From Octopus vulgaris (lineage: Eukaryota), in assembly GCA_951406725.2 (NCBI GenBank), contig OX597832.1:51274001-51338000 (forward strand): a DNA stretch of 64,000 bases. The letters are read 5' to 3'. The position numbers and the translations under genes were made by a program. A model generated the notes under the pieces. It was not told the DNA's origin, made no database searches, and saw nothing but the letters and a program-made list of their open reading frames with translations. Position 1 is the stretch's first letter. Each line of letters starts with the position of its first letter. Below are positions 3,112-45,800 of this stretch, piece by piece.

Positions 3112-3146
3112 GTTTCTGACGAAGAACTCCGCTCGAAACGTTAAAC
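3112..3146 (+). ncRNA. Minimal type I hammerhead ribozyme motif in a Penelope-like pLTR remnant (~3000-3240)
   Basis: gttt-CTGACGA-A-GAAC.TCC.GCTC-GAAA-CGT-T-aaac: stem I, catalytic core, stem II with one mismatch, palindromic ACGT stem III. Confidence 0.75.
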
Positions 3147-3559
3147 CCTCCTTCTTTCCTGAGCGCCCAATAACACTATACTTGTTCCACGTCCTCATGT
3201 TGTTGTGTTTTCTCTTTGTGTTTTCATGTTTGGATTAACTATATATATATATATATATCCATATTATATGTATTTATATATAAACACGCACACAATTTGT
3301 ACATAGTTAATTCAGGTATTCTTTTATACTTTTATTCTGTCATTCTTTTACTTGTTTCAGTCATTTGACTGTGGCCATGCTGGAGGACTGCCTTTAGTTG
3401 AGCAAATCAACCCCAGGACTTTTTCTTTATAAGCCTAATACTTATTCTTTTGGTCTCTTTTGCTGAACTGCTCAGTTACAGGATGTAAACACACCGGCAT
3501 CAGTTGTCAAGCAATGTTGGGGTGACAAACATACACACACACATACATATATATGTATA

Positions 3560-3926
3560 CTAGCAGTATCGCCCGGCGTTGCACAGGTTTGTAAGAGAAA
3601 TAACTATAAAGCATTTTTAGAGAGTTATAGCCAAAAAATAGCAAAAAATGGGAAAAAAATGATGGTAAATTTTTTTTTTTGAGAGTTAAAAAAGGTGGAG
3701 TTGCGTCCCCTAGACGGTCTGTGGTTTGGGTTTCTGATTCTCGACCCCATGTCGAATTTATCAATTTTTTTCAGAACTGGGGGAACTTTTCAAAATTTTC
3801 GCTGCGTTAGTTTTGAATTATGACATTGGGCTATGTGTGTGTCAAATTTCATCAGAATCGGTTGAAAGCCGTGGTCAGAGTGAGGGTACGAGAAAACAGA
3901 CTCACAGAAAACTGCCGTTTATATAG

Positions 3927-3931
<5 letters not shown>
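3560..3931 (-). mobile_element. Non-autonomous Helitron nested in a SINE-A microsatellite
   Basis: On the minus strand it starts TC, ends CTAG, sits between A and T, and has a subterminal hairpin (CCTGTGCAACGCCGGG). Confidence 0.75.
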
Positions 3932-3961
<30 letters not shown>

Positions 3962-6595: not shown

Positions 6596-6647
<52 letters not shown>

Positions 6648-7536: not shown

Positions 7537-7571
<35 letters not shown>

Positions 7572-12190: not shown

Positions 12191-12600
12191 CTACTTTTGT
12201 ATAATCTCCAACAATATCACCAACAATCACAACCTTGTGATTGCTTGACTTTTTATCCCAACTCTCATCAAAAAAGTTACTTAACGCTAACTTAAAGGAT
12301 TGTTTTCCAATTGTGGTTTTAAAATGTCTTTTCAGATGTATGCATTCAGTTTTATTTCAAGAGTTCTTGCCAATAAAGAGCTGGTTTCTAAACTAGATCC
12401 AAGGCTCCTTCATTGGAATTTCAGCATCAACAGGGTATTTTTGTATATATAAAGAAGAGTATTGTAGTTCGCTTGAAGCATTGAGTATTGTTTGTAAAGA
12501 ATAAAAAGTTTTGAATGGTACAACAATGCACTATAATACAGACAATGGGCTATATACCTGTTGTAATTTAGTCATCCATAGTCTGATATGATATTTCGGA

Positions 12601-12980
12601 GGAGGCGCAATGGCCCAATGGTTAGGGCAGCAGTCTCGCGGTCATAGGATCACGGTTTCGATCACGGGCGTTGTGAGTGTTTATTGAGCGAAAACACCTT
12701 AAAGCTCCACGAGGCTCCGGCAGGGGATGGTGGTGATCCCTGCTGTACTCTTTCACCACAACTTTCTCTCACTCTTACTTCCTGATTCTGTTGTACCTGT
12801 ATTTCAAAGGGCCGGCCTTTTCACTCTCTGTGTCACGCTGAATATTCCCGAGAACTACGTTAAGGGTACACGTGTCTGTGGAGTGCTCAGCCACTTACAC
12901 GTTAATTTCACGAGCAGGCTGTTCCGTTCATCGGATCAACCGGAACCCTCGTCGTCGTAACCGACGGAGTGCTTCCATCC
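12601..12980 (+). mobile_element. SINE family C (tRNA-Arg-like head)
   Basis: A/B boxes, CTCGCG anticodon-like loop, 13-bp TSD atgatatttcgga (12588-12600 and 12981-12993). Relative at 21336-21645. Confidence 0.85.
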
Positions 12981-13015
12981 ATGATATTTCGGAATAATAT
13001 TCCTTCTTCAGATAT
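12981..13015 (-). ncRNA. Minimal type I hammerhead motif, disrupted by the SINE-C insertion
   Basis: Minus strand atat-CTGAAGA-A-GGAAT.ATT.ATTCC-GAAA-TAT-C. The stem I partner atat is restored when the SINE and one TSD are removed. Confidence 0.7.
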
Positions 13016-13127
13016 TCTTAGATGGAGTCGCTGCTATAATCAGTTTTCAAACAGCTTGTTTATGTGCAGATTTGTATGTATTGTCAAGCATATAGTTGCA
13101 TGTCTCGACATGCTCGTATATACTCAA

Positions 13128-13347: not shown

Positions 13348-13364
13348 TTAAATGATAAACTTCT

Positions 13365-21964: not shown

Positions 21965-22007
21965 ATGGACTATGACATAATGAAAGCAGGCTGGATGCAT
22001 CGGCAGA
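21965..22007 (+). CDS. PLEKHB2: Evectin/PLEKHB-like, coding exon 1 (MDYDIMKAGWMHRQ-S)
   Basis: Acceptor ttattacag|G at 21920/21921, in-frame upstream TGA, caaaATGG start, donor A|GTAAGA at 22007/22008. KAGWMHRQS matches the evectin PH start (KSGWLLRQS). Confidence 0.9.
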
Positions 22008-22034
22008 GTAAGAGTTAATTTATTTAATTTTGCA

Positions 22035-22079
<45 letters not shown>

Positions 22080-22405
22080 TCTCTCTACCTCCTCACTCTC
22101 TCTAGCTACTCCCTCCCTCTAGCTCCTCCCTCTCTCCGCCTCCTACCTCTCTCCACCTCCTACCTCTCTCCGTCTCCTCCCTCTCTCCGCCTCCTCCCTC
22201 TCTCCGCCTCCTCCCTCTCCCTGCCTCCTCCCTCTCTCTGCCTCCTCCCTCTCCATACCTCCTCCCTCTCTCCGCCTCCTCCCTCTCTCTATCGCCTCCC
22301 CCTATCTACCGCCTCCCTCTCTCTACCTCCTCCCTCTCACACACCCTCACTCACTCACTCACTCACTCATTCAGTTACTCACTCACTCACTCAGTTACTC
22401 ACTCA
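22080..22405. repeat. Pyrimidine-rich ~17-bp minisatellite (CCTCCTCCCTCTCTCCG)n plus (CACT)n
   Basis: Directly visible tandem units after a (CA)n tract. Confidence 0.85.
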
Positions 22406-26236: not shown

Positions 26237-26321
26237 GTTGGCTACAGTTCTTCTTTCGTGGCATTTTGTATTTGCAATGTAAAGATGGTATGCCCCTATA
26301 GTAATGCTTCTATTGTTTTAG

Positions 26322-26467: not shown

Positions 26468-27887
26468 GTAAGTTATTTCTTTATTAGCACATAGTTATGG
26501 GTTTTTTGCATGTCCTTTTATTGTTTTACTCTTTTGCTTGTAAAAGTCATTAGACTTCGACCATGCTGGAGCACAACCTTGAATTTTAGTCGAATGAGTC
26601 AACCCTAATGCCTTTTTAATTATTATTTTTTTTTAAGCCTGGTACTTATTCTGTAGGTCTCTTTCGCAGAACCACTAAGTTACAGGGAAGTAAACACATC
26701 AACACCGGTTTTCAAGCAGTAGTAGGAGGACAAACACACACACACACACACACAAATCTTCCTCTTGCACAAGTTTCTTCTACATAGATATCTTGGTATA
26801 TCATTACCTGTCTGTTATCCTTCTAACAAGTCCATATTAGCACAATCTCTTCTCATGCATGCTACAACCAATTCCTCATTTGTGTCCACCCCATTCAATA
26901 CTACAACCAATTCCTCATTTGTGCCTATTTCTTTACTACCCACAAGGGGCTAAACACAGAGAGGACAAACAAGGACAGACAAACGGATTAAGTCGATTAT
27001 ATCGACCCCAGTGCGTAACTGGTACTTAATTTATCGACCCTGAAAGGACGAAAGGCAAAGTTGACCTTGGCAGAATTTGAACTCAGAACATAACGGCAGA
27101 CGAAATACGGCTACGCATTTCACCCAGCGTGCTAACGTGTCTGCCAGCTCGCCACCTTTGTGCCTACCCTATTCAATACTACAACCAATTCCTCATTTGT
27201 GCTCCTTTTCAAAGCAGTGGCACTAATGAAGTAACTAAGTACTTGCAAGAGACAAGACCTCTCGACTGAGTGGAGTTTAGTATTGAATGGGGTGGGCATT
27301 GTAAAGTGGTTGGCATTTGGAAGAGTAACCTATTGTAGAAACTATGCCAAAACACACACTAGTGCTTGCTACAGTCCTTTAACTGGTTGGTTCCTGTCGA
27401 ACTGTCCGACTCATGACCAGCATGAAAAAACAAACATTAAATGATGTTGCTGTTGTTGATGATGATGAGGAGGAGGAGGAATACTTGCCTTATTTATTTC
27501 CATCATTTGCTTTAGATTCTCATGTTTAGCTAACATGTAACAAGATCTGCCCTTCACTTGTAGATAGAACCCCATGGCTCAAGGAGAGTAGCTTCTGATC
27601 CTCACTCCTGAAGACAATCCTATTCATTCATTCATATATAATTCTAAAATCCTTAATGTATTTACTCTTTCTCTTACTCTCTTTTACTCTTTTACTTGTT
27701 TCAGTCATTTGACTGCGGCCATGCTGGAGCACCGCCTTTCGTCGAGCAAATCGACCCCGGGACTTATTCTTTGTAAGCCCAGTACTTACTCTATCGGTCT
27801 CTTTTGCCGAACCGCTAAGTGATGGGGATGTAAACACACCAGCATCGGTTGTCAAGCAATGCTAGGGGGACAAACACAGACACACAA

Positions 27888-27928
<41 letters not shown>

Positions 27929-28574
27929 CAAAAAGAGAAAATGGAGAAATATATCTAAATCAATCATCAACCATCAGATAATACCCAATCAATACTTTAT
28001 TAAACCATTACATAATAGCAATGATATTATACATTAATATAGTACAAATATAACAAGACATAGAAATAGAAATAGAAAACATATATACGACAGGCTTCTT
28101 TCAGTTTCCGTCTACCAAATCCACTCACAAGGCATTGGTCGGCCCGGGGCTATAGTAGAAGACACTTGCCCAAAATGCCACGCTGAAGAATAATCTTATC
28201 TCAAGCCAGCAAATCAGTAAGATTTGGAAGAGCCAAGAACAAAATGCCATGGTGTATTTGATTACAAACATTTACATTCAGCATGCAAGAATTCGTGAGA
28301 AATCCACACTTGTCAAATATATCTTCTGACATTTTTTTGTTTCGTTTGTCTAAATCTTTATAGATGCAAGCTTAGTGTGTGGTTCAGAAGCTAGCTTTGC
28401 AACCATGTGGTTTGGTGTTCAGTCCCACTGTGTGACACCTTGGGAAAGTGTCTTATATTATAGCTCCAGGTCAACCAGTGCCTTGTGAGTGAATTTGCCT
28501 GATGGAAACTGAATGGAAGTCTATAATACATTATATATATACCTCCTTCTTTCTGTGTTTTTTTTCTCTGTGTA

Positions 28575-28612
28575 TCTTTCTGTTGAAGAGCGTAGGCTCG
28601 AAACGTTAAAGA
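28575..28612 (+). ncRNA. Minimal type I hammerhead motif in a Penelope-like remnant (~28543-28710)
   Basis: tcttt-CTGTTGA-A-GAGC.GTAG.GCTC-GAAA-CGT-T-aaaga. All stems pair and one core base is variant. The downstream TTCCTGAGCGCC is shared with the 3112 copy. Confidence 0.75.
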
Positions 28613-28705
28613 CTTGTTTTATTTATATTTCCTGAGCGCCATACTAATACAATTGTTTGTTTGTTTTCCACCTGCCTTTGTCTTTTGTCTATTTTCATAA
28701 AGCTT

Positions 28706-28752
<47 letters not shown>

Positions 28753-29006
28753 TAAATTATATATATATATATATTATATTAAATTAGAGATAAAACCACT
28801 ATTAGGCAAATCAAACAATGAAAAACATAAGCCAATACATAAAATTAATTTAATTTATATTATTTTAAATATATATCAAATATTTAAATATATATCAAAA
28901 GTATTAAAAGTTTAATAAAAGATAAATGACAACTAAAGAATGGGACCTCGATATTATGTAAGTAGAGAAATTTATATATATAGTATAGCATAGGACAATC
29001 AGTAAG

Positions 29007-29081
29007 TTGTCATAATATAACTCAGAGTTTCAAATGCTGGAGCTAAGAGCTTTGAGGCATTTTCATCGGCTATTTTGACAA
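29007..29081 (-). ncRNA. Type I hammerhead motif with a longer stem II loop
   Basis: Minus strand ttgtcaaaatag-CCGATGA-AAATGC...GCATTT-GAAA-CTC.T.GAG-T-T-atattatgacaa. Confidence 0.65.
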
Positions 29082-31715
29082 TAGACACTATGAAAAGGAA
29101 AACAAAAAAAGAAAGAAAAAAAACGTTCAATAAAAGGGAAGTTACTCTCAAAGGTATGAAAAAGTATATCTTTTTGATATATAAATATATAGCATTTTGA
29201 GCTTTATAACTTATAATTTATTTGTATTGTTATTTTAAAAAAAAATTTCAACATCTTTATATCATACAAATAAATTATTCATACATCCATCTTTCTCCAT
29301 TTTCTTTCTTTCAATATTAATATGTATATCTTTATTTTCTAAGTTCAAATTCCGCCAAGGTCGACTTTGCCTTTCATTCTTTCGGAGTCTATAAATTAAG
29401 TACCAGTTGCATACTGAAGTCGATCTAATCAACTGGACCTCTCCCCACAAATTTCGGGCCTTCTGCCTAGAGTAGAAAAGAATATTAATAATATGTATTA
29501 CTACAATAATCCTTAACATATTGCTGAGACTTTCTTATGTGATAGTGATTAACCAGTAGAATTTTTTAGATTATATAATCCCTAATGTAGATCTAACATC
29601 TTTGAATTGACCATATATATATATATATCATCATCATCATTGTTTAAGGCCCGTCTTCCATGCATCCATGGGTAGGACGGTTTACAGGAGCCAGCCAGGT
29701 AGAATATTTATCCAAGGCTACTGTGTCTGTTTTGGCAAGGATTTTATGACTGGATGCCCTTCCTAGCAGCTGTAAAACTCCTGCATGTATATATCATCAT
29801 CATCATCATCATCGTTTAACGTCCATTCTCCATGCTAGCATGGGTTGGACGGTCTGACCAGGGATCTGGGAAGCCAGAAGGCTGCACCAGGCTCCAGTCT
29901 GATCTGGCAGTGTTTCTACAGCTGGATGCCCTTCCTAACGCCATATATATATGTATATATATTTATATACACACACACACACACACACATATAAGGGGAA
30001 ACATGTAGAAGTGGTAGATCTAGGAAGTGGTGAGAAAGGATCTACAAATGTTGGGACTCATAGAAGGGATGACAGGCAGTTTGCTGTGCTTGAAAAAGCC
30101 AAGCTAAATAAAAGCGTGCTTGCCTTTGCATATAGGCTTGTCCCTTGCAACCCTCTCTAGCTGAGCATCCCTAATCTTATGGGCTCTTAAGTGCTGGTGC
30201 CATGTAAAAAGCTCCCATGCCAGTGCTGTGTAAAAGCACTAAATACCCTCTGTAAACTGGTTGGAGTTAGGAAGGGCATCCAGCCATAGAAATCATAGCA
30301 AAACAGACAGTGGGCCCTAAAAAGCCATTTAGCTAGTCAGCTCCTGTCGAACTAACTCATGCCAACATGGAAAACAGGTGCTAAATGATGATGATGATGA
30401 TGATGATGGTTTTATAAGTGTGTGTTTGTTTGTCCCTCCCTCACCTTACTGCTTGACAACCTGTGTTGGTTTGTTTACATCCCCATAAACTAGTTGTTCA
30501 GTAAATGAGACACATAGAGTATGTACCAGGCTTAAGTTAAGTACTGAAGTTAATTTGTTTAACTAAACCCTTTAAAACAGTGCTACAGCTTGGCTGCTGT
30601 TCAGTGACTGAAATAAATAAAAGATAAAAGGTGTATGCATAGCTGTGTGGTAAGAAGTTTGCTTCCCAACCACAGGGTCTTGGTTTCAATCCTATTGTGT
30701 GGCACCTTGGGCAAGTGTCAAAGCCTTGTGAATCAATCTGGTAGACTGAAACTGAAAAAACCCCATCAAATGTGTGTGTGTGTGTGTGCGCGTGTGTATG
30801 AAGGTTCATGGCCTAGTAGTTAGGCATATTGCACTAACAATCGTGAAATCTTGGTTTCAATTCCCAAGCTGGCTGTGTGTTGTATTCTTGTGCAAAACAT
30901 TTAATTTCACACTGCCCCAGCTTCAGCTGTAAATGGATAACCCTGCAATAGACAAGCTTTTCGACCAGGGGGCAATGTTGGCCTGCTTGTCTAGTCAGCA
31001 GGATGGCATTATCCAAAAACTAAAACAATGCAAAGCGCATTGTGACCAGTGATGTATAACATCTGATAGTCTGGTTGATCATGTCATCACATGATATATG
31101 TGTATATATGTGTGTATATACATGTGTGTGTATGTGAGTATATATGTGTGTGTGTATGTGAGTATATATATGTATGTGTATGTGAGTATATATATGTGTG
31201 TGCATGTGAGTATATATATGTGTGTGTATGTATGTGTGCGTGTGTATATGTATGCATATGTGTGTGTGTATATATGTATGTGTGTGTGTATGTATGTATA
31301 TATATATATATATATATATGTGAGAAAGAGAAGAAACAAAATATCCTTAAGATGATGATATTTTGTGTGTGTGTACATGTATGTATATGTATTGTGGGTG
31401 TATGTGTCTTACTATCTGATTTCATGCGGCAGTCGTAAACACATGTGACCATCATGCAAGTGGTGCCCTTTATTTCCAATCTTCCATGAAAACATGTCTG
31501 GTCACAGGGAGGTATTACCTTGCTTGGAAACAGGCAAAGGTTTGTGACAGGAAGAGCATCCAGCTGTAGAAAATGCACCTCAGCAAATTCTGTGTGACCC
31601 ATGCAAGCATGGAAAAGTGAATGTTAAACGATGATGATAATGAGGAAATGACAATAACAAACCGTTGTTTTTTTTTGTTTCTTTTTGTAATTCTTTATTC
31701 TTCAACTATTTTTAG

Positions 31716-31825
31716 GTGGCTATGTCCAATCCACTTCCATCACACCTGAACCGCAATTGTCTGATAGAATTGGTAGCACGAGACAGAAGGTTGTTGTTGT
31801 GTGCAGAAAGTTCTGATGACACAAG
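31716..31825 (+). CDS. PLEKHB2: Evectin/PLEKHB-like, coding exon 3 (VAMSNPLP...LLLCAESSDDT)
   Basis: tttttag|GTG acceptor, AG|GTAAGA donor, phase 0 to 2. LCAESSDD corresponds to LCAESTDD of evectin-2. Confidence 0.92.
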
Positions 31826-33317
31826 GTAAGATATCCATTTTAGTCATTAAAATCCCTAGCAAAACCTCAGGTATTACCTTCTGTATATTTTACATTTTTC
31901 GTATTCCCCTCTCTCTCTCTCTTGCGGAGAGGCACTGAGCAGCTATACACACACATACACACACGGCAGTGACTTCCACCTACCGGATTCAATCACAAAG
32001 TTTCGGTCGGCTCGGGGCTATAGTGGAAGACACCTACCCAAAGTGCTATGCAGTGGGACTGAACCCGAAACCATATAGCTAGGAAGCAAACTCCCTAACC
32101 ACACAGCCATGCCCGTGCCTACAGTCATGCCCGTATTCATTTGTCTCAATTGTCCAAAGCCAAATGTCTCTGTTACTCAGAGAGAGAGAGAGAAAGCATC
32201 GTACATAATTAACAAATTATTTTTAGGGCAAGTCAGTGACGTCCCTCTATGTGGACACTCAGAAATAGCAGCCAAATTTTCCTTCAAATTCACTCAAAGT
32301 GCACCATACCCTTCTTTCATAGAAAAGATTGTATGATTGCACTTACTGGAAAAAAGACTGGATGGGCCCGGCTAGAACGTCTCTGACCAATAGGTCTGCT
32401 CAGTCAGAGTTGATCTTGCGGCTAAACAACAACAGCAGCTATTTTCAATTATCATCAACTTCCAGAATACCCCGGATGGGGATGGGTGTCAATAAGTATA
32501 AGGTAAAAATAATTAAGGGGAAGTAACTCTTGGTAAAAATGAATACCTTGTAGTATCTATAGTTATCGGAAATTAATATTCTTTACTCTAGGCACAAAGC
32601 CCGAAATTTTTTTTTGGGGGGGGGGGGCAGTCGATTACATCGACTCCAGTACGCAACTGGTACTTATCGAACCCGAAAGGATGAAAGGCAACGTCGACCT
32701 CGGCAGAATTTGAACTCAGAAGTAAAGACAGACGAAATACCTATTTCTTTACTACCTGCAAGGGGCTGAACATAGAGGGGACAAACACGGACAGACATAG
32801 GTATTAAGTCGATTACATCGACCCCAGTTCGTAACTGGTACTTAATTTATCGATCCCGAAAGGACGAAAGTCAAAGTCGACCTCGGCGGAATTTGAACTC
32901 TGAACGTAAAGACAGACGAAATACCACTAAGCATTTCGCCCAGTGTGCTAACGTTTCTCTCAGCTCGTCGCCTTATCGGAAACTGATATTGATAAATAAA
33001 CTATCGGTTTGTAGCCAGGCACAAAGAAGCCAGCGCTATTTTGAAACAGCGACATCTTACCTGCAACCATTGCCATACACGAGACTAAAATGAGATCTCA
33101 CCTTTAACCATTATTGAAGAAAAAGACAACATTTTCCCCTCTCATTCTTCTCAGGCTGAGGCCGAGAAGACACTTTGAAGCCAGGAGCTCACAGTGGACT
33201 TTGGTCTCACTGTGATACTACATGCATTGTCTCCAGACGTTATTGAACCTCACATGTATGGGAGAGAAGGCTAACTACACACTACTGTGAAGATGGTTAC
33301 TGAAAGCAAACCCCTTG

Positions 33318-33729
33318 GGATCTTTTCGGTTTGAATGGCAGTTTTTAACATAATTTCTAGGTAACTAAAAAAATTTTAAACTTCGTATACTGGTAGAATG
33401 TGTTTATAAAACATCTTTTTTTCTCTTGGCTTTATTGAGAAAATTCTATAGTTTGTAAGATATTTGTTGTTGTTTTTCTTCAAATTCTGCAATTTCAACC
33501 AACAGTGACGTCTATTGAGTTAAAAAACATTCTGTGCCGTATGAATAAGTCCCTCGTTTAAGAAACAGATTGGGTTTATTTACAATTTGTGAAGCAAAAA
33601 GATACCCTTCCCCAACCCCTAACCCTAAAACAGATTGAAGTGAAATAGATCGATACTAGGGTCATAATTATGGGTGACAATTTCATATGACACCGCTAGA
33701 AAAAACTGCCGTTCAAACCGAAAAGATTC
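33318..33729. mobile_element. Third TTAGGG-containing Merlin-like MITE
   Basis: GGATCTTTTCGGTTTGAATGGCAG / CTGCCGTTCAAACCGAAAAGATTC termini; flanks share aacccctt. Confidence 0.8.
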
Positions 33730-33949
33730 AACCCCTTTTATGAAGCACCTGTGAATAAATGGTTATTGAATTTACTCCGCCTGAGAACTTCATTCTTCGT
33801 ATTTCCAGCTCCTTGAATCAACAGACTAATTATAATGGAAGCAGAAGATACCCCAAAAGTATCATAAAAACCTTCCTTCCATTATAAAATGGTGACCCCG
33901 ACGTGCCTTCCTTCCATTTTAGGTTAGTTGCTGTCCGCAGAATTTCATA

Positions 33950-34413
33950 TAATAATATAATGAAATTATTGTATACAGTGCTCAGGTGCACCACAACTTG
34001 TCAGAAAGTGCGTATAGAGTACATGCAGTAATGTACAAATGTCTAGAAAGCGAACAGTGTATGAGTCAGATACATGCTTGTGTGTGTATGGAGGGGAGAA
34101 AACCAGGTGTAGTGTTGGCGAATCTCAAGAAGCATGGAAGTTTTGAAGGATGCAGTGCTCCGACAACTAACAACTGATGCCGGCAGTTTGTTCCATGCTT
34201 CAGCAACTCTCAGCGTGAAAAAATGTTTCCTAAAGTCATGGGAGCTGTGCTGTTTTCTGACTTTGTAAATATGTCCACAGGTGTTAGACAGTTGGAGTTT
34301 GAAAAGGTGCCCAGAGTTATTGTTTGTAAGATGGTTAATAATTTTATGGTTGTCTGCCAAGTCAGCTGCCAGACGTCGGTGTTTCAATGTGTCCATGCCC
34401 AGGGAAGTAAGGC
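33950..34413 (-). mobile_element. CR1-like 3' fragment; a shorter copy lies at 36544-36939
   Basis: Highly similar to 291-746. Confidence 0.85.
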
Positions 34414-34704
34414 CTTGTGCCTAAATTAGAAATACCTAAAAATAAATGCAGAACTAAATAATTTCAACTAGTATCTCACTAAATATTTGTTTTAAAGTCT
34501 TGTACTTATTTTCTCAGTCTCTTTTATTGAACTGCTAAGTTATAGGGCTTGGCTGTGTGGTAAGAAGCTTCCTTCTCAACCACATAGTTCCAGGTTCAGT
34601 CCCACTGTGTGACACCTTTGGCAAGTGTCTTCTACTATAGTCTTGGGCCAACCAAAGTTTTGCAAGTGGATTTAGTAGATGAAAACTGTGAGAATCCCGT
34701 CATG

Positions 34705-34740
<36 letters not shown>

Positions 34741-35934
34741 ACTTTGTCTCCCCCCACCCATCACTGCTTGACAACTGGTGTTGGTATGTTTACATCCCTG
34801 TAACTTAGCACTTCAGCAAAAGACACTGATAGACTAAGTACTAGGCTGTAAAAAAAAAAATAATCCTGGGGTCGATTTGTTTGACTAAAACCCTTCAAAG
34901 TGGTGCTCCAGCATGGCTGCAGTTGAATGGTTAAGGTGTTGGACTCATAGTTGTAAGATTGTGGTTTCAATTCCTGGACTGGGCGACGCGTTGTGTTCTT
35001 GAGCAAAACACTTCATTTCACGTTGCCATCACATGTCTTATCTCTAACACTGCTTTTTAAATCTGATTGTTTATATTATGTTTACTCCTTTTACCTTCTA
35101 ATTTATGTACCCCATTTTGATTTTTGGGGATTTTGAGTTACACTTTCTATTATATTATTTGAGTTATCATCATCATCATCATCATCATTTAGCGTCCGTT
35201 TTCCATGCTAGCATGGGTTGGACGGTTTAACTGGGGTCTGTGAAGCCGGAAGGCTTCATCAGGCCCAGTCAGATTTGGCAGTGTTTCTACGGCTGGATGC
35301 CCTTCCTAACGCCAACCACTCCGTGAGTGTAGTGGGTGCTTTTTACGTGCCACCATCACAATTCACTACATCACAATTTATTTCGCTGTTACTAAGTGGT
35401 TTTCCACCACATTTCTTAAAAATTGTGGTAGAGGCCTTGGTTTCGGGACCATTCATGTCGAGAAACTGAAGTTGGGGGTAAGCGGGGGCTGGCTTCCTGT
35501 AGAAAATACAATTCCAAAAAAGCCTCATGATAGCAAAGGAGAATGGTTACCAGCCAGCCCAAAAATTGGGGTGGGGTGCACTTGCCTACCTTGGCTGCTT
35601 ATGGCATTGAGGTAGATCTGGCCACCTCTGTTAACAAGGGAGGGGTGCTGGATTTAAAACACTGGATGGTGATGATGATGATATGCATTAAGTTACTATC
35701 TTTAGTATGAATACTTGCTTTCAGATTGCTGTGCTTTTTAGCATGTGTTTACTTGTTCAGATCCTTGCAGGAGTGGCTTTGTGGTAAGTAGGTTGTTTAC
35801 CAACCACATGGTTCCGGGTTCAGTCCCACTGCGTGGTACCTTGGGCAAGTGTCTTCTACTATAGCTTCGGGCCGACCAAAGCCTTGTGAGTGGATTTGGT
35901 AGACGGAAACTGAAAGAAGCCTGTCGTATATATG

Positions 35935-35967
<33 letters not shown>

Positions 35968-38535
35968 TTGCGTGTCTGTGTTTGTCCCCCTAGCATTGCT
36001 TGACAACCGATGCTGGTGTGTTTACGTCCCCGTAACTTAGTGGTTCGGCAAAAAAGACCGATAGAATAAGTCCCGGGGTCGATTTGCTCGACTAAAGGCG
36101 GTGCTCCAGCATGGCCGCAGTCAAATGACTGAAGCAAGTAAAAGAGAGAAAGAGTATAGCAAAGGAGAATGGTTACCAGCCAGCCCAAAAGTTGGGTCGG
36201 GGTGCACTTGCCTACCTTGGCTGCTTATGGCCGCAGTCAAATGACTGAAACAAGTAAAAGAGTAAAAGAGTGAGTATAGAGTATTGTTTTCGCCAGTTAT
36301 TTCCCTTGCATCATTTTCCGTATTAACTTTATTTACATCAATGACTTATTTCGTGTAATTTTCTTAAGTGTTCATTTCTATGTAGAAAGAATTTCGTAAA
36401 TTTAATATTCTCAACTATAGACCACTGTTCATCTCCAAATGCTGTTAAGTACTAGTTTGACGGTGGGTATTTCCTTGTCTTAAAAGTCCTCTGTATTTGT
36501 AACGTGTCTTCACTATTCTTACTGTTGGAGCTTTCATCTTTCTTAATAATAATAATGAAATTATTGTATACAGTGCTCAGGTGCACCACAACTTGTCAGA
36601 AAGTGCGTATAGAGTATATGCAGTAATGTACAAATGTCTGGAAAGCGAACAATGTATGAGTCAGATACATGCTTGGTTGTGTATGGAGGGGAGAAAATCA
36701 GGTGTAGTGTTGGCGAATCTCAGGAAGCATGGAAGTTTTGAAGGATGCAGTGCTCTGACAACTAACAACCGATGCCGGCAGTTTGTTCCATGCTTCAGCA
36801 ACTCTCAGCGTGAAAAAATGTTTCCTAAAGTCATGGGAGCTGTGCTGTTTTCTGACTTTGTAAATATGTCCACGGGTGTTAGACGGGTGGAGTTTGAAAA
36901 GGTGCTCAGAGTTATTGTTTGTAAGATGGTTGATAATTTCTTATAGAATCATGCTCTCCATCTCATTCTTTGTCTGAAGGTATTTATTTTATAGATGATA
37001 TCTCTTTTTGTATTCCTTTTTTGATGGTATTGGAGTATCTTTCATGGATATATTTATATTTATTATTTCCATTTTCTGGTAATCTGCTTTAGTCATTCAG
37101 TAAAATACTGAGTTTGTTTAAAGGTAAATTTCCAAAATTGGTTCATAGGGATATACAATCCTAGCAGGTACCATGTTCACTTTGACTGGTTAACAATAAT
37201 ACTGGTTAACCTCAGTGAATGTAGATGAACTCCACTTAGCTTATTTTTCTATCCTTAGTAGATTCTCACTTAGATAAATCCATATGTCTATATAGAGACT
37301 GCATGTTGTCGGTAGAGAAGAAATGATAAATTAATAAATTATGAGAAAAGAGATTTGGTTGGACTAGTACTCTATTTAGATGGTGTCTGAAATGCAGTTA
37401 AATTGTACCCTGGCAAAACAGCATCAGTGATTAACCCCAAAATGCACATCATGCTGCAAAATTTTCAGTGTGCACTGACTTGCAACAGAAACCTATGTTG
37501 GTACTGACATGGAAAGATGTGATTAACTGTCACCTGTTTCTGCCTCTCTGTCTCTTTGTCACCCTCTAACCTTTCATCTTCTGACATGAGTTCCCCTCCT
37601 CAAATTCCCCTACCCCTCTCACAATTCCTTGTCTTGTGAGTTACATGATGACCCTGCCAGTGCTGGTGCCATGTAAAAGGCGTCTAGTCCACACTGTAAA
37701 GTAGTTGGCATTTTGAAGGGCATCCAGCTGTAAAAACCATGCCAAAACTAACATTGCCTGTGCTAGTGCCTCTTAAAAAGCACTGAATCCACTCTGCAGA
37801 GTGGTTGGTGCTAGGAAGGGCATCCAGCCATAAAAACCCTTCCAAAACACACACAGCAGTCATAGGTAGTTTTTCTACCTGGCCAGCTACTGTGAACCTT
37901 CCTACCCTTGCATGCATGGAAGATGGACATTAAACGATGATGATGATAATATATATTTCATGTATTTGTGTATATGTGATATATGGAGATGTGCATATAT
38001 TTAGTCAAATACACCTACTTACAAGTAAAAGATATACAGGCATAAGCTGTATGTATGTGTATTGTTTAGATAGATATACAGTGATGTGCGTAAATAGAAG
38101 AGTGTGTATAAGTGTGTACAGTATTTGTGGGTATCATAAATATATATCAGCAATTAAATTCTTTACTAAGGCATACTAATATCTGTTAATAGATAATAAA
38201 TCATTACTGTTCTATTTCCTCATTAGGGAACAACTTCTTTGAAGTGAATGTGTGTTCATAACACATTCAATTTATTAGCGTATGGAGACTTTAAGGCACC
38301 TAGTGTTTTGAAATTATTGTACCTCCTCAGTCACAGCTACTACCTACCAGCCACCCAGGATTACATCCCAATTGTATTTCAACTACCCTGAACTAATGAA
38401 TTGAGTCCAGGGTGACTGGGATTTAATTGACTTAGGCACAAGAAGACAGAATTCAGACATAGCTGAAGTACAATAAGTGAAACCAGTAGAAGAATACTCT
38501 GAATTCAATTGTCTTTAAAATGAATGCTCCTAAAA

Positions 38536-39168
38536 CAGTGTTTCCCAACCTATTTTCCCCCAGGCTTCACTATAACTTTCCATAAATATGTATGCCCCAC
38601 CAGTGATTGAAAAACAACTTTATTTTTAATATTTTTTCACAATTATTTAATACAGTGGTTCTCAACCATTTTTTTAATCTATGGACCTCCTTGATTACTG
38701 TTTTACTCTGGTGCTCCCCTCCCCCCAGCCTCTCGGATGTTTAAAGACTAGTTTTATAGAAACTTCTTTCAAAACCCGTTTTGTTTTTCACACATTAACT
38801 TGTGTAGGCTGAACTATTTAACATGTTAGAGAAAGAACCCTATCTGTTTCTTCCAATACATACATCAAAATCAAAATTTTTTTAATAGACCCTTAATATA
38901 CTACTGTGTGGACCCCAAAAATATTATATGGGCCCCCAGGGGGCCATATGAACCCTTGCTGAGAACCACTTATTTAATACAAAATAATCTACCAGTAACT
39001 CTTTATTTAAGTAGAGTACAAAAATTAGTACATTCTTGACTAAGAAATAAAAAAACAAGTGAATTGCTTTATTGAGAACCTCGTGCCTGGCAGCCTACGG
39101 CACCATGCCCTACCACCATTTTCCCAGGCCCCACAAGTGGGGCATTTATCCTACATTGGGAATCACTG
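38536..39168. mobile_element. hAT MITE containing a nested hAT MITE (38653-38971)
   Basis: Outer CAGTGTTTCCCAA / TTGGGAATCACTG; inner CAGTGGTTCTCAA / TGAGAACCACT with 8-bp TSD atttaata. Confidence 0.75.
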
Positions 39169-39302
39169 CTCTAAATTCTATCAGCTTTTTAAATTCCTCC
39201 TGCACTACCAAGGTCACCTTATTAAGAAAAATTAACCTTGTTCTTTGTTGAATGAGATGAATGCTATTCATTAAACTGCATAATTTTTGTATTTCACCAA
39301 AG

Positions 39303-39505
39303 TGCTTGGAAAATGGCAATTGAAGAAGCCAGAGCAGTTCATGCAACCCGACGATTTTCAGACACATTCCGACCAGATCATCACCAAGGCATGGAGCCAC
39401 CACCTTCTTATGCTGAGCTTTACAACCAACCTCAGATTTTAACATATGCCACCAATGAGTATCCAACAGGCTATTCTGTGCATCATGTTAATTCTTTACC
39501 TTATG
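39303..39505 (+). CDS. PLEKHB2: Evectin/PLEKHB-like, coding exon 4 (AWKMAIEEAR...PPPSY...LPY)
   Basis: aag|T acceptor, G|GTAAGT donor, phase 2 to 1. Contains the PH C-terminal helix Trp (AWK) and a PPxY motif. Confidence 0.9.
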
Positions 39506-39568
39506 GTAAGTACACCATCAAAACAAGTACACACACATATCACCGCTATTATTATTATTATTATTATT

Positions 39569-39840
39569 CTATGTTTGACTTTTGCTTTATATTTGTACAA
39601 GTTGGCTCCAAGTCTCACTCAGAGACCTCAAGAGACAACAGGTTGGAAGTTTGTGATGTTGTTATGCCTAGTGTGCCAAAAAAAAAAACGAAAATAGAAA
39701 GTATTTTGCGTAGGATATGAGCAGTTCCCATGAGCACTATCTTTTGAATTTCTGCCATTTTGGGGTTTCCTGGTATCTGAGTTAGGTAGCGATCAGCCCC
39801 TTTTGCTATCATTCCCAGGGCACCTATGACAACCGGTATT
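39569..39840 (-). mobile_element. R4/Dong-like retrotransposon 3' end inserted in (TAA)n
   Basis: IPVVIGALGM...IQKIVLMGTAHILRKILS; (TAT)n tracts on both sides. Confidence 0.7.
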
Positions 39841-40585
39841 ATTATTATTATTATTATTATTAATAAGGCGGTGAGCTGGCAGAATCATTAGCATCTGACT
39901 TCATGTTCTGAGTTCAGATTCTGCTGAGGTTGACTTTGCCCTTCATCCTTTCGGGGTCGACGAAATAAGTTAATAAAAAAGGAGCTCTCCGTCAGTTGCG
40001 ATGACGAGGGTCCCAGCTGATACGATCAACGGAACAGCTTGCTCGTGAAATTAACGTGCAAGTGGCTGAGCTCTCCACAGACACGTGTACCCTTAACATA
40101 GTTCTCAGAAAGATTCAGCGTGACACAAAGTGTGACAAGGCTGGCCCTTTGAAATACAGGTACTACTCACTTTTGCCAGCTGAATGGACTGGAGCAACAT
40201 GAAATAAAGTGTCTTGCTCAAGGACTCAACGTGCCACCGGGAATTGAACTTGTGACCTTATGACCATGAGCCGAATACCCCTAACCACTAAGCCACATGC
40301 CTGCCAAAATAAGTACTAGTTGAGCACTGGTGTCGATGTAATCGACTTAGTCCTCCTAACAAATTTCAGGCTTTGTGCCTATAGTAGAAAGGATTATTAT
40401 TATATTAGCTTTCTCCAGGCTTTCGTCAGTTGGGTGAGATTTCTTGAGGCAGCATTATTCTATGCCAAGATGCCATGTCCAACCACTAGGCTGTGGAGAT
40501 GTGTTGTTTATGCGGGACTAAATGTCTCAGCTGCTCAAGTTGTGTCAATGTAAACACACAGGGAGACGTGCACAAATACACATGT

Positions 40586-40641
<56 letters not shown>

Positions 40642-42429
40642 TATGAGACACATATATTTAGTCAAATACATCTGTCTGCACAAGTAAAAATTATACAGGT
40701 ATAAGCTTACACCTTGTTGAATATACAGGTACCAGCTTACACTGATTGCAGATGGTATTCATTTGCATGGTGACTATCTCACAAAAAATTTAAAACATTT
40801 TATTTTTTGAGATATATTTGTCCAATTTGGGTCAGTTTGTTTTCATGACATGTTTTTTTGATCTCACTCATTTGACATCTGCTTTCCATGCTGGCATGGG
40901 TTGGACAGTTTGACTGAAAACTGGTAAACTTGGGAGCTGCACCAGGTTCCAATCTGATTTAGCATAGTTTATACAGCTGGATCTTCTTCCTAATGCCAAT
41001 CACTCCAAGAGTGTAGCAGGTGCTTTGTACATGCCACCAGCATGGGTACCAGTTATGAAATACTGGCATTAGCCATGACTATGATCTCGGTTGGCTTCAC
41101 AGATCTTAAGCATGATATAATGCCAAAGGTCTCGGCCTCTTGTCACTGCTTCCGCGAGGCCCGAAGTTTGAATTGTACTTTTTACATGCCATCAACACAG
41201 GTGCCAATTATGTGATACTGACATTGGCCACGGCTATGATTTCACTTGGCTTGATAGTTCTTCTCAAGCACAGCATATCATACATATATTTATCTCAGAT
41301 GGGAGCAGGTATGGCGATGTGGTTAAGAAAATTGTTTTGAAATAACAAGGTCTTAGGTTCAATCTCACTAACATTTATGACGAGTGTTGTTTCTCATAAC
41401 CTCATGTTGCCTTGACTTTTGAGAGTGGAATTGAGTGGATGGAAACCACATGGAAGCCTGTTAGATGCTTCAAAGATAGCTAGATGAAAAATCCTTCAAT
41501 ATCATCCTCTCCCTTACTTTTCTCTGTACCACTTTATCATGCTAGTCCAACATGGTTCAGTGCTTGGTCCATTACTCTTTTTAGTTTTGATATATGATCT
41601 GAAGTGTATTCATGAAAATGAGCTCAGTCTCTACCCAAATGACTCCCCCCCACTCCCAAAATGTTCCAAACACCAGCTTAATAATGACTAAATGTTATTT
41701 TACTATATTCTTCATTATTAATTCATTATTTAATTATTAATTGAATCAAGGGCAGTGTTTTTCAATAGAAATAAAGTAACAAAATATATAAAAGACATTT
41801 ATGCAGTTTTTATGTATAGTCAGCGAAAGCACATGGTTCAGTGGTTAGAGTGTCAGGATCACAATCATGACGTAGTGAGGTCGATTCCTGGACCGGGCTA
41901 TGTGTTGTGTTCTTGAGCAAGACGTTTCATTTCATGTTACTCCAGTTCACTCATCTGTAGAAATGAGTAGCAACGTCACTGGTGCCAAACTGTATCAGCA
42001 TTTACTTTTCCCTTGGACAACATCGGTGGCACAAATATAATTGCCTGGAGAAGAAAATGCTGCAATTAGGTTAAACAGAAATCTTGTAAGAAGAATAGCC
42101 AGGAAGAGAGACCTGAAAGTGACATTTGAGCCAGTGACATAAAACTTTTTGTTTTGTGAAGGAAAAACTGAATGAATTAATGCTTGCATTGTATTTTGGG
42201 AATTCTAACCTGTCCGCATAAAAGTAATTTGATATTCTGAGTGTAATCAATAACAACAAAGCTGTATCAGCAGAATGTATTTTCCTAGCTTGCTAATTGA
42301 ATAACGTAGACGTAGCTAGTGAACATGATCTGGACTTTATTGTCAATAGTGATTTGTATCAGACAAACCACATTTCAGAAATATTGAATTTCTAAATGTC
42401 TCACTGAGATATGTATGGTGGTGGAGCGA

Positions 42430-42882
42430 TAGAGTGGTTGTATACTGTCAACTTAACGTGACAGTCCTGTAAGGGAATTACACCACCACTGTTTAGCCCT
42501 AGGAAGCATCGACGCTTCCTGTCGGCCTTGACACATTTCCTGTGACCTTATATATTTAGAAATTTGATATTTCTGATTTTGGTGATCAGTGAATAAACTT
42601 CACTGAAAATATACATATATATATTTACGAAGTCTAGACAAATATCTTCAGCTAGCAGGCCTTGCTACTCTAGACTGATGATGGGCGAAGACCCAGAAAT
42701 ATGCATTTCCCTAGATGCAGGCCTAGCTGTTGGGAGTGCTTGTCTCCCCTTCGTAAATATATAAGGACACAGGAAATGTGTCAAGGCCGACAAGAAACGT
42801 CGATGCTTGCTAGGGTTAAACAGCGGTGGTGTAATTCCCTTACAGGACTGTCACATTAAGTTGACAGTATACAACCACTCTA
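42430..42882. mobile_element. Fold-back element with ~129-bp inverted arms and a central hammerhead motif; duplicate at ~44477-44929
   Basis: TAGAGTGGTTGTATACTGTCAACTTAA... (42430-42558) is the reverse complement of 42754-42882. Confidence 0.85.
42669..42715 (+). ncRNA. Type I hammerhead motif; duplicate at 44716-44762
   Basis: tctaga-CTGATGA-TGGG.CGAAGA.CCCA-GAAA-TATGCATT-T-C-cctaga. Perfect core, near-palindromic stem III, and stem I extendable via cagcta/tagctg and ggcct/aggcc. Confidence 0.7.
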
Positions 42883-45800
42883 AACCACATTTCAAAAATC
42901 ATCAAGAAGGCTGAGGGTATCTCAGTATCACTCAGTAAGATCCTTGTCATTTATTCTCAACAGGGTAAAAAGACATTCATAAAACTTCTACTTATAATTA
43001 CTTGTCCTGTTCAATGTCTCTTCCATTAACAAACTCCCTACTGGCTATTACACCCTCTTTGTACTAAATCTTAGTACAGCATGACTTTCTGCAAAGATCT
43101 AGCTACCCTGCAGAGATCATTAGCTAAAGACATCTGGCAATGTTACACAGTTCTAATTCTCTTCTCACACACTATAGTGACCATTTGTCTATTCTATCCG
43201 CCATTTTTGCCGAACTAAGCTATGGGGGGAAACACATGGCCTAGTGGTTAGAGCAGTGGATTCGCAGTCGAGGGATCGTGGGTTTGAATCTCAGTCTATT
43301 GCTAGCTGCTTTATAACAGTATCCCCTATGCCTGTTCAAGTGACAGGCAGAATGATGGTTTTTTACAAAGTAGATAATTGACTATATGTAAAGGGTAAAG
43401 GATAAAGACCCCCTTTGGTCATGAATGACCATGGGTTGCACCTAGAAAGTTACCCTCTGAGGTACAAGTCCAGGCAAGGTTGCTTATGGAAGACCAGCAT
43501 GCCACCAATGTTATCCAAGGGAATAGTAAATGCTGATAGTTTGGCACCAGTGACGTTGCTACTCATTTCTACAGATGAGTGAACTGGAGTAACATGAAAT
43601 GAAACGTCTTTCTCAAGAACACAACACATAGCCCAGTCCAGGAATCGACCTCACTACGTCATGATTGTGATCCTGACACTCTAACCACTGAGCCATGTGC
43701 TTTCGCTGACTATACATAAAAACTGCATAAATGTCTTTTATCCCTTTTGTTACTTTATTTCTATTGAAAAACACTGCCCTTGATTCAATTAATAATTAAA
43801 TAATGAATTAATAATTAATAATGAAGAATATAGTAAAATAACATTTAGTCATTATTAAGCTGGTGTTTGGAACATTAATTTTGATGTAGACCCAGGAGTA
43901 GCTGTGTGGAAAGATGTGTAGTGAGGTCGATTCCTGGACCGGGCTATGTGTTGTGTTCTTGAGCAAGACGTTTCATTTCATGTTACTCCAGTTCACTCAT
44001 CTGTAGAAATGAGAAGCAACGTCACTGGTGCCAAACTGTATCAGCATTTACTTTTCCCTTGGACAACATCGGTGGCACAAATATAATTGCCTGGAGAAGA
44101 AAATGCTGCAATTAGGTTAAACAGAAATCTTGTAAGAAGAATAGCCAGGAAGAGAGACCTGAAAGTGACATTTGAGCCAGTGACATAAAACTTTTTGTTT
44201 TTGTGAAGGAAAAACTGAATGAATTAATGCTTGCATTGTATTTTGGGAATTCTAACCTGTCCGCATAAAAGTAATTTGATATTCTGAGTGTAATCAATAA
44301 CAACAAAGCTGTATCAGCAGAATGTATTTTCCTAGCTTGCTAATTGAATAACGTAGACGTAGCTAGTGAACATGATCTGGACTTTATTGTCAATAGTGAT
44401 TTGTATCAGACAAACCACATTTCAGAAATATTGAATTTCTAAATGTCTCACTGAGATATGTATGGTGGTGGAGCGATAGAGTGGTTGTATACTGTCAACT
44501 TAACGTGACAGTCCTGTAAGGGAATTACACCACCACTGTTTAGCCCTAGGAAGCATCGACGCTTCCTGTCGGCCTTGACACATTTCCTGTGACCTTATAT
44601 ATTTAGAAATTTGATATTTCTGATTTTGGTGATCAGTGAATAAACTTCACTGAAAATATACATATATATATTTACGAAGTCTAGACAAATATCTTCAGCT
44701 AGCAGGCCTTGCTACTCTAGACTGATGATGGGCGAAGACCCAGAAATATGCATTTCCCTAGATGCAGGCCTAGCTGTTGGGAGTGCTTGTCTCCCCTTCG
44801 TAAATATATAAGGACACAGGAAATGTGTCAAGGCCGACAAGAAACGTCGATGCTTGCTAGGGTTAAACAGCGGTGGTGTAATTCCCTTACAGGACTGTCA
44901 CATTAAGTTGACAGTATACAACCACTCTAAACCACATTTCAAAAATCATCAAGAAGGCTGAGGGTATCTCAGTATCACTCAGTAAGATCTTTGTCATTTA
45001 TTCTCAACAGGGTAAAAAGACATTCATAAAACTTCTACTTATAATTACTTATAAGTAGAAGTTTTATGAATGTCACGTGGTGGTGTAATTCCCTTACTTG
45101 TCCTGTTCAATGTCTCTTCCATTAACAAACTCCCTACTGGCTATTACACCTTCTTTGTACTAAATCTTAGTACAGCATGACTTTCTGCAAAGATCTAGCT
45201 ACCCTGCAGAGATCATTAGCTAAAGACATCTGGCAATGTTACACAGTTCTAATTCTCTTCTCACACACTATAGTGACCATTTGTCTATTCTATCCGCCAT
45301 TTTTGCCGAACTAAGCTATGGGGGGAAACACATGGCCTAGTGGTTAGAGCAGTGGATTCGCAGTCGAGGGATCGTGGGTTTGAATCTCAGTCTATTGCTA
45401 GCTGCTTTATAACAGTATCCCCTATGCCTGTTCAAGTGACAGGCAGAATGATGGTTTTTTACAAAGTAGATAATTGACTATATGTAAAGGGTAAAGGATA
45501 AAGACCCCCTTTGGTCATGAATGACCATGGGTTGCACCTAGAAAGTTACCCTCTGAGGTACAAGTCCAGGCAAGGTTGCTTATGGAAGACCAGCATGCCA
45601 CCAATGTTATCCAAGGGAATAGTAAATGCTGATACAGTTTGGCACCAGTGACGTTGCTACTCATTTCTACAGATGAGTGAACTGGAGTAACATGAAATGA
45701 AACGTCTTTCTCAAGAACACAACACATAGCCCAGTCCAGGAATCGACCTCACTACGTCATGATTGTGATCCTGACACTCTAACCACTGAACCATGTGCTT

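Follow-up and report, generated by a model that had tools for sequence, protein, structure and literature searches.

The 64,000-nt stretch of the Octopus vulgaris genome analysed here (the window) contains motifs described in an initial annotation as five distinct minimal hammerhead ribozyme folds of Penelope type, and raises the question of whether these folds are genuine, from which elements they derive and whether the copies lying in introns of the host gene PLEKHB2/evectin-2 act on its transcript. The motifs are in all likelihood type I hammerheads. They sit in short copies of five repeat families that are abundant in the octopus genome and that are likely the 5'-truncated ends of Penelope-like elements (PLEs) and, in one case, a non-coding retrozyme-like derivative; cleavage by the copies in the window is probably slight or absent. 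Each motif falls in a different one of these families, designated A to E (Table 1).

Table 1. Positions of the host gene, the repeat copies and their hammerhead motifs in the window
Feature	Position	Strand	Description
PLEKHB2/evectin-2	21965..47708	+	range covers coding exons
PLEKHB2 coding exons	about 21965-22007, 26322-26467, 31716-31825, 39303-39505, 47581-47708	+	
Family E copy	2943..3253	+	5'-truncated 3' end, probable Neptune-type PLE, (TA)n at end
Family E minimal hammerhead	3112-3146	+	core CUGACGA 3116-3122, additional A following A9
Family B copy, 3' piece past insertion	12436..12600	-	
SINE-like repeat interrupting family B hammerhead	12601..12980	+	later than family B copy
Family B copy, 5' piece	12981..13057	-	Poseidon/Penelope-type pLTR, intact minimal hammerhead
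Family A copy	28543..28774	+	young 3' end of Neptune-type PLE, PLEKHB2 intron 2, sense
Family A minimal hammerhead	28575-28612	+	core CUGUUGA (A6U) 28580-28586, common to family
Family D copy	28853..29168	-	antisense in PLEKHB2 intron 2; old copy of what is probably a Nematis-type PLE end
Family D hammerhead	29007-29081	-	core CCGAUGA (U4C) at 29069, long stem II
Tandem duplication, 2.05 kb	41872-43917 / 43918-46015		
Family C copy	42375..42885	+	retrozyme-like unit 42552-42885, sense in intron 4
Family C full type I hammerhead	42645-42732	+	core 42675-42681 (CUGAUGA)
Family C second copy	44422..44932	+	453/453 compared nt identical to first
Family D relative, decayed	61535..61619	+	without intact hammerhead

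Detection of the motifs and background controls

Every claimed sequence was found at its reported coordinates and strand. A strict type I descriptor requiring CUGANGA gave four matches (3116+, 13011-, 42675+ and 44722+) against none in each of 12 shuffles, a version with one core mismatch and a perfect 4-bp stem II gave five against none in 12, and the loosest setting gave nine against a shuffle mean of 1.1, the descriptor having been composed after the sites were seen and the shuffles being block-wise dinucleotide shuffles (n=12). Control searches with reversed patterns returned 0 matches. An Rfam search yielded no hammerhead at the gathering threshold and none at E<=10, and minimum free energy folding of the motifs alone gave z-scores of -0.6 to -1.9, which are not significant.

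All five folds are real and above the shuffled background, but they amount to four unrelated architectures, because the families of the 3112 (E) and 28575 (A) motifs are sisters with identical stems II and III, and two of the five cores are non-canonical. The CUGANGA and GAAA boxes and an NUH triplet are present in the window copies of E, B and C, and the cores of A (A6U) and D (U4C) each depart from CUGANGA by one substitution that is family-wide. A family consensus lacking CUGANGA had been named beforehand as an outcome that would count against the hammerhead assignment; it was found for these two families, yet the positions that are kept still argue for hammerheads. Three traits of minimal hammerhead ribozymes (min-HHRs), namely an extra nucleotide between A9 and 10.1, a G10.1-C11.1 pair and a palindromic minimal stem III, all occur in A, B and E; families C and D are without G10.1-C11.1 and have a longer stem III, and the 42669 motif, although labelled minimal, is a full-size type I hammerhead. 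The differing stems of unrelated families do not count as the covariation that had been read into them, and covariation was found instead inside family C and, when A is compared with E, at a single pair of stem I. Family searches of the genome returned 569-1,678 first-look candidates per family with matches on many chromosomes, the top-match samples being skewed towards the query sequence. The density in the window, which had been called high, equals the genome background, since 0.84 exact matches per 64 kb are expected for one superfamily alone.

Repeat families and their origin

The proposed Penelope or retrozyme-like origin is borne out by upstream same-strand GIY-YIG/RT ORFs in A and B and by the ORF-less, wrapped unit of C; it is weaker for D, and for E it is reached through sisterhood with A. 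The PLE origin of C, D and E is inferred, ORF matches in these families being few or inconsistent. PLE insertion traits (5' truncation, inverted partial copies, a tail and (TA)n targets) were observed in the families; B, C and D have inverted partial copies next to the motif, a feature known from PLEs (PMC8557442, in excerpt).

A Neptune-type ORF lies upstream of the family A motif in 3/30 and 4/30 loci of two samples, and at one locus RT, a CxxxxCxxC linker and GIY-YIG are encoded in a single open frame ahead of the motif. For family E, with one weak ORF match in 44 loci, a PLE origin is suggested by similarity to family A; its window hammerhead has one stem II mismatch (GAAC, family GAGC), stem III ACGU and the cleavage triplet GUU. 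In family B, a same-strand GIY-YIG ORF ends ~300 nt ahead of the core in 8/30 loci. In the 12981 hammerhead (core CUGAAGA at 13011-13005, stem III AUAU), the later insertion of a SINE-like repeat severed the 3' strand of stem I 2 nt past the cleavage site. This repeat is flanked by target duplications of 13 nt, at 12981-12993 and at 12588-12600, and its tRNA-like head was discerned by eye and not detected by ARAGORN. An RLE-type LINE fragment at 13373-13726 (-), R4/Dong-like by eye, was considered as parent of this motif and rejected because the B copies share sequence only to ~13057 and lead to the GIY-YIG ORF. The ORF link of family D consists of one sense match in 25 loci and two antisense matches beside inverted copies; two GIY-YIG ORFs next to D copies (loci L095 and L106) were set aside as belonging to other, younger families. 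The decayed relative reported near 61535-61600 is indeed kin of family D (74% over 85 nt), with the GAAA box lost.

Family C consists of a wrapped unit of ~350 nt (349-nt period) without an ORF, and no consistent ORF was found near it in 55 loci. In the window, part of the unit's 3' end lies inverted ahead of it (42375-42558), and the two window copies are identical because they share the 2.05-kb tandem duplication. Three substitutions in the 42669 motif disrupt pairs 15.2-16.2 and 1.1-2.1, at which the other family C copies have C in 22/23, G in 23/23 and U in 23/23. The stem III sequence first given for this motif, ATATGCATTT, is a damaged version of ACATGCATGT, and the predicted stem III homoduplex is at -5.7 kcal/mol for the window copies versus -13.3 kcal/mol for the family form. 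In the family alignment 94.4% of cells pair and 7/15 pairs are changed on both sides, against 18-49% in slid controls, a control that does not remove relatedness among copies. Folded as a circle, a natural 349-nt unit gave z = -7.4. Wrap-around was seen in 12/25 loci; among the 100 places listed there were one head-to-tail dimer, three more same-strand pairs 287-365 nt apart and no long arrays. Thirteen of 30 genomic copies picked via the 3' part have no parsable hammerhead in place. As a side observation, contigs from four runs guessed to be RNA, without a DNA control, span the family C unit from 1549 to 1846 of locus L064 and are far deeper 3' of the cleavage site, a depth that pools many diverged subfamilies and is given no evidential weight; no wrap-around joint was listed in contigs of these runs, in which the 5' part was skipped as repeat.

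Core variants and proposed mechanism

Among the first 100 listed of 36,565 genomic matches, counted by hand and lying at the start of one chromosome, 12 have a canonical core, 59 CUGUNGA (A6U) and 21 CCGANGA, and one family bears the A6U core in about 14,000 copies, or more, across the genome. No natural A6U hammerhead was found in print, and literature searches on A6U turned up only a twister paper; Lunse et al. 2017, reportedly a source on min-HHRs in the pLTRs of metazoan PLEs, or paper supplements may list A6U. An active natural A6U core, if confirmed, would alter search descriptors, and those that fix A6 would miss most copies in the octopus genome.

In the RNA of active master elements, the minimal motifs would cleave slowly, either as dimers via the palindromic stem III or aided by the element's protein. 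Monomers of min-HHRs showed no in vitro cleavage (PMC4209133, in excerpt), and the PLE ribozyme of the anole depends on protein, while insertion in vitro can proceed without it (PMC11167929, in excerpt). The full motif of family C would cut tandem transcripts to unit-length RNA that could be circularised and reverse-transcribed by the PLE machinery. In amplifying lineages, selection would keep the fold, the 3-8 pair, G5, A9 and GAAA, and tolerate weakening at U4 or A6.

Chance folding in AT-rich repeats, for which the silence of Rfam, the weak folding z-scores and the matching of shuffles by loose descriptors might be cited, can be given almost no weight, as strict and reversed-pattern controls gave 0 matches, the motif is positioned after PLE ORFs, family C covaries and the family alignments already refute it. 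A more serious reading, which we regard as possible without favouring it, is that the variant cores are dead hitch-hikers: cleavage would be dispensable, the A6U and U4C lineages would have spread by drift, and the motif would either be in decay or persist solely for protein binding or as a promoter element. It gains from the rarity of canonical cores among the 100 listed, from the GUU/GUA cleavage triplets of families A and E and from a young Neptune-like family with no motif by eye in the 670 nt downstream of its ORF, as well as from published work in which hammerhead mutants left in vitro insertion unaffected (PMC11167929, in excerpt), Naiad PLEs thrive without canonical hammerheads (PMC8557442, in excerpt) and A6C has a kobs of <0.1 per min (PMC3088659, in excerpt). 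However, the 100 listed cores retain G5 (100/100), A9 (100/100), G8 (99) and C3 (97), although any of the four bases is found at N7 and loop II is variable, and they combine U4C with A6U in just one case; a compensatory U3-A8 occurs in 20/20 loci of a separate young family and also in family C relatives; and the viroid U4C variant stays active in vivo (PMC3088659). The constancy of the four core positions is suggestive of selection, short of proof, because the subfamilies are few and 74-90% alike.

The ORF1-only element and the host gene

Outside the window, an element of ~1.65 kb (range about 1.6-1.8 kb) carrying an ORF1 and no reverse transcriptase lies directly 5' of the retrozyme hammerhead, with target duplications, in 24/27 loci. 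RT matches were found in 3/59 loci, none of them between ORF1 and the element's 3' end. Duplications of at least 9 nt at the 3' junction were present in 19/29 loci analysed, with 18 skipped. The ORF1-like protein has a zf-CCHC in 18/18 members, below the Pfam cut-off in those shown, and its Atlas features lie at 0.90-0.93 to CCHC and ZCCHC3 RNA-binding clusters; sequence homologue searches were empty, a PDB sequence search gave nothing useful, and structure predictions (pLDDT 32 and 39) were too poor for use. ORF1-only HAL1 ("half-L1") elements, together with HeT-A, serve for comparison. The octopus element likely parasitises the retrozyme-like family C as a recurrent landing site. We advance tentatively the wider proposal that PLEs have been selected for deliberately slow hammerheads, including A6U in well over ten thousand copies, and that their retrozyme offspring is parasitised by an RT-less ORF1-only LINE inserting specifically into the ribozyme 5' arm; processing from one ribozyme to the next would then release a protein-coding retrozyme RNA of ~2 kb. 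A mobile element targeting a ribozyme arm would, if real, extend the targets of sequence-specific LINE derivatives by a new class and would amount to three-level parasitism (PLE, retrozyme, half-LINE).

The ORF1 segment, which was found in relatives of family C, might instead be part of one composite element with family C as its pLTR. Related ORF1 lineages at other targets speak for this, and the PLE-style inverted and wrapped flanks around composites indicate that some were probably copied as units, but independent site-specific insertion accounts better for flanking duplications of 9-20 nt that differ in sequence from one local target subfamily to another and stop 2-23 nt ahead of the core, and for a segment that terminates in an AATAAA end of its own, is found in arrays at the hammerhead site and occurs at unrelated targets too; the composite is therefore unlikely. 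Action on the host gene is a still more improbable reading, in which sense intronic copies would cut evectin pre-mRNA and thereby alter host expression, for instance through dimer formation between the two duplicated copies, which lie 2,047 nt from each other. The placement announced initially is correct, the copies at 28575, 42669 and 44716 lying sense in PLEKHB2 coding introns and that at 29007 antisense, and the duplicated pair keeps its CUGAUGA/GAAA core with 8/10 palindromic positions still pairable. The suggested role in host pre-mRNA is nevertheless unsupported, because the three sense copies represent only two events and all three deviate from the active consensus: the duplicated pair carries the disrupted stem pairs described above, and the copy at 28575 is a solitary minimal motif with the A6U core. 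Chance alone would also give two sense events versus one antisense.

Comparison with known systems

PLE solo hammerheads in thousands are already known from many animals, and the finding as initially annotated is ordinary. Beyond this, the amplification of sister subfamilies whose cores are canonical, U4C, A6U or U3-A8 offers a natural series relating cleavage rate to amplification success, through which the function of PLE hammerheads could be approached. The literature searched has nothing on these motifs in octopus, and "hammerhead" and "ribozyme" are missing from the main text of a 2026 O. vulgaris repeat paper. In the available part of the account of metazoan PLE min-HHRs (Cervera and de la Pena 2014, PMC4209133), the likeness to octopus extends to type I topology, a 4-5-bp stem I, an extra base after A9, a short palindromic stem III, thousands of solo copies, a site after the RT/GIY-YIG ORFs and the U3-A8 variant; that part reports U3-A8 as the sole core variant, whereas the largest octopus superfamily is mostly A6U/U4C. 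Natural core variants (Perreault et al. 2011, PMC3088659) likewise include U3-A8, U4C and a U-U pair at 10.1-11.1, but such variants are rare there and the majority among the 100 listed cores of the octopus superfamily; A6U has 0 occurrences in that paper, where A6C is listed.

Family C has the non-coding unit of 150-450 bp and the canonical type I HHR that characterise retrozymes. It resembles animal non-LTR retrozymes (Cervera and de la Pena 2020, PMC7229834; Li et al. 2026, bioRxiv 10.64898/2026.07.22.740005, from whose text octopus is absent) in its ORF-less ~350-nt unit, its full type I hammerhead with a 6-bp stem I and internal loop, a highly self-paired circle prediction and PLE-like flanks, and its weak stem II base resembles axolotl HHR_Amex2. 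It differs from them in occurring mostly as dispersed monomers accompanied by inverted pieces and short wrap-arounds, with multimers observed up to the dimer and the circle only predicted.

A hammerhead or retrozyme as LINE target was not found in the Tx1, HAL1 and retrozyme literature searched; targets named for Tx1-clade LINEs in the available part of PMC4494074 include another transposon, U2 snRNA genes and microsatellites. As far as that part goes, these sequence-specific LINEs share with the ORF1-only element an ORF1-like protein with a CCHC knuckle, an AATAAA end and 9-20-nt target duplications, and Tx1-clade LINEs together with the ORF1-only HAL1 match it in a multicopy target, head-to-tail arrays and the lack of an RT of its own.

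Hammerhead motifs in the window

The hammerhead sequences were confirmed as given in the initial annotation. A type I descriptor, composed once the sites were already known, yielded 4 matches in the window with a perfect core, 5 when a single core mismatch was allowed but stem II had to be perfect, and 9 at the loosest setting; 12 shuffles gave 0 each at the first two settings and a mean of 1.1 at the loosest. In this check, proposed beforehand, shuffled sequence did not equal the window counts. An Rfam search of the window gave no hammerhead match and the folding energy of the motifs by itself was unremarkable, both as expected of minimal motifs. The motifs are real and of a known kind, and their presence, density and intronic position are ordinary. 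The "high density" claimed previously equals the genome background, as one superfamily alone is expected to contribute 0.84 exact matches per 64 kb.

PLEKHB2/evectin-2 is the sole host gene of the window, which lies within a 2.8 Gb genome and otherwise consists of repeats; its PH-domain exon led to a 209-aa protein whose cluster includes Octopus sinensis, O. bimaculoides and O. vulgaris. Two sense events and one antisense event were found in introns, without bias. The presence of three sense intronic copies was upheld, but these are the least likely to cut because of their variant or damaged state (variant core in family A, broken pairs in family C). The family D copy also has a variant core, a single mismatch in stem II is the only defect of the family E copy, and the family B copy retains an intact core, with a later repeat inserted 2 nt past the cleavage site (13-nt duplication). 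The two family C copies represent a single event, a tandem duplication that is either a real rearrangement or an assembly artefact, and carry three substitutions breaking pairs 15.2-16.2 and 1.1-2.1, where other family C copies have C in 22/23, G in 23/23 and U in 23/23.

Positions of hammerhead sites, host gene and other features in the window
Feature	Position	Strand	Basis or remark
Family A hammerhead	28575		genome search
Family B hammerhead	12981		genome search
Family C hammerheads	42669 / 44716		genome search
Family D hammerhead; ruined relative	29007; 61535		genome search
Family E hammerhead	3112		genome search
PLEKHB2/evectin-2, five coding exons	within 21965-47708	+	tblastn
RLE-type LINE ORF, broken C-terminal fragment	13373-13726	-	R4/Dong-like by eye; rejected as unrelated to adjoining hammerhead
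Tc1/mariner-like transposase fragments	25741-26061, 24691-25077	-	by eye
Tandem duplication, 2.05 kb	41660-46015		97% by gapped BLAST; inverted copies of a 370-nt stretch at borders
LINE reverse transcriptase frame, 491 aa	53388-55345	+	RVT_1, E 7e-38
3' pieces of the same LINE family	about 500-770, 34040-34420, 36500-36950
Inverted repeat pair, 364 nt each	52838-53201 / 57408-57771		98% complementary; either side of LINE copy
Neptune-type PLE ORF fragment, decayed	60621-61134	-	hammerhead region absent

Repeat families and their link to Penelope-like elements

Genome searches showed every site to be a member of many dispersed copies (569, 1,639, 1,628, 626 and 1,678 first-look candidates). 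Families A and E are sisters as judged from sequence: they have stems II and III in common, differ by a compensatory change at one stem I pair and show 55-62% overall likeness. Family copies lack their 5' part, terminate in (TA)n and in many cases contain an inverted piece of themselves. The suggested link of the flanks to Penelope ORFs was borne out for families A and B, amounted to one sense match for D and one weak match for E, and gave nothing consistent for C; the samples contain the window copy itself as well as a few loci that overlap. In 8/30 family B loci a GIY-YIG ORF on the same strand terminates ~300 nt upstream of the core, and a Neptune-type ORF lies upstream of the family A motif in 3/30 and 4/30 loci (two samples), one family A locus having RT, cysteine linker and GIY-YIG in a single frame ahead of the motif. 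Nematis-like matches for family D comprised one sense and two at inverted copies (25 loci), family E gave a single weak match in 44 loci, and no consistent ORF was found in 55 family C loci. The clade names were given by motif rather than from a tree.

Variant cores

Majority non-canonical cores are what is new about these hammerheads. None of the 30 top family A matches has A6; when any base was allowed at positions 6 and 7, the family A motif gave 14,929 exact genomic matches, the first 100 listed carrying U6 in 96 and any of the four bases at position 7 (hand count). Freeing the 3-9 box and loop II gave 36,565 matches, and the first 100 listed, a non-random sample from the start of one chromosome, comprised 59 CUGUNGA, 21 CCGANGA, 12 canonical, 3 A6C, 3 C3U, 1 CCGACAA and 1 double variant by hand count, with G5 and A9 invariant and G8 altered once. 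Reversed-pattern controls gave 0. As the A6U subfamilies show 10-26% divergence and include near-identical young copies, A6U was amplified rather than gained post-insertion. The 26 family D matches (CCGA 15, CTGA 5, CCA 5) point to symmetric CpG decay of a U4C master. In a separate, very young Neptune-like PLE family with full-length ORFs (811-aa open frames), 20/20 loci carry a minimal hammerhead whose core is U3-A8 and whose stem II has 2 bp. Another young Neptune-like family has 784-aa frames and a long 3' UTR; inspection by eye of its first 670 nt at nine loci revealed no hammerhead.

The rare natural variants U3-A8, U4C and A6C have reduced or retained activity according to PMC3088659, and U3-A8 is reported in PLEs in PMC4209133. 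Our reading is that these octopus lineages may keep a weakened ribozyme. That dead ribozymes hitch-hike with amplifying lineages is a serious rival, since cleavage was dispensable for in vitro insertion of an anole element (PMC11167929).

Family C and a putative ORF1-only element

In its family form, the family C motif is a full type I hammerhead: stem I has 6 bp and is followed by an internal loop and a long outer stem, and stem III is the palindrome ACAUGCAUGU. In an alignment of 37 sequences, 94.4% of cells pair (slid controls 18-49%), with double-sided changes at 7/15 pairs, relatedness still included. The 3' end continues into the 5' start in 12/25 loci and the head-to-tail dimer has a period of 349 nt; folded as a circle, this unit gave z = -7.4 against 60 shuffles, and a 24-mer from it has 993 exact genomic matches.

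Some family C loci outside the window are broken by a ~1.65-kb segment, absent from the window itself, with one ORF of 443-453 aa, an AATAAA end and no RT inside. We read its protein as L1/Tx1 ORF1-like from a CCHC knuckle and Atlas features like those of CCHC/ZCCHC3 RNA-binding proteins; sequence searches with it found no homologue. Among the best 30 genomic matches to the protein (three already in the set), the 3' end of the segment was placed in 27; by eye, it adjoins a hammerhead of the family C type, on its 5' arm, in 24, with the core next within about 35 nt in 19 of these, and lies elsewhere in 3. Twenty further loci hand-picked for long frames included 13 that share this 3' end, with a hammerhead next to it in 11, and 7 of a sister lineage at other targets. 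A second ORF1-bearing element carries a sister lineage at its 5' end. Target duplications of 9-20 nt, found in 19/29 analysable loci (18 skipped), vary with the target subfamily and stop 2-23 nt ahead of the core; head-to-tail arrays of the segment also occur. On the simplest reading, the segment would be a site-specific, non-autonomous half-LINE (an ORF1-only element without reverse transcriptase) parasitising retrozymes, PLE machinery then copying some composites. A hammerhead or retrozyme target for such an element was not found in the largely open-access literature searched, and the element is a promising side lead.

Comparison with known systems

A full-text literature search for A6U returned only a twister paper; Lunse et al. 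2017, outside its scope, may cover this variant. A6U, carried by octopus family A, is absent from the natural variants listed in the consulted part of PMC3088659. The structure described for PLEs in PMC8557442 is that of the octopus family copies, with 5' truncation, (TA)n and inverted pieces. Family C, in which a dimer is the longest array seen and circular RNA would be a prediction, fits the non-LTR retrozymes of PMC7229834 and is consistent with the PLE origin of retrozymes proposed in bioRxiv 2026.07.22.740005.
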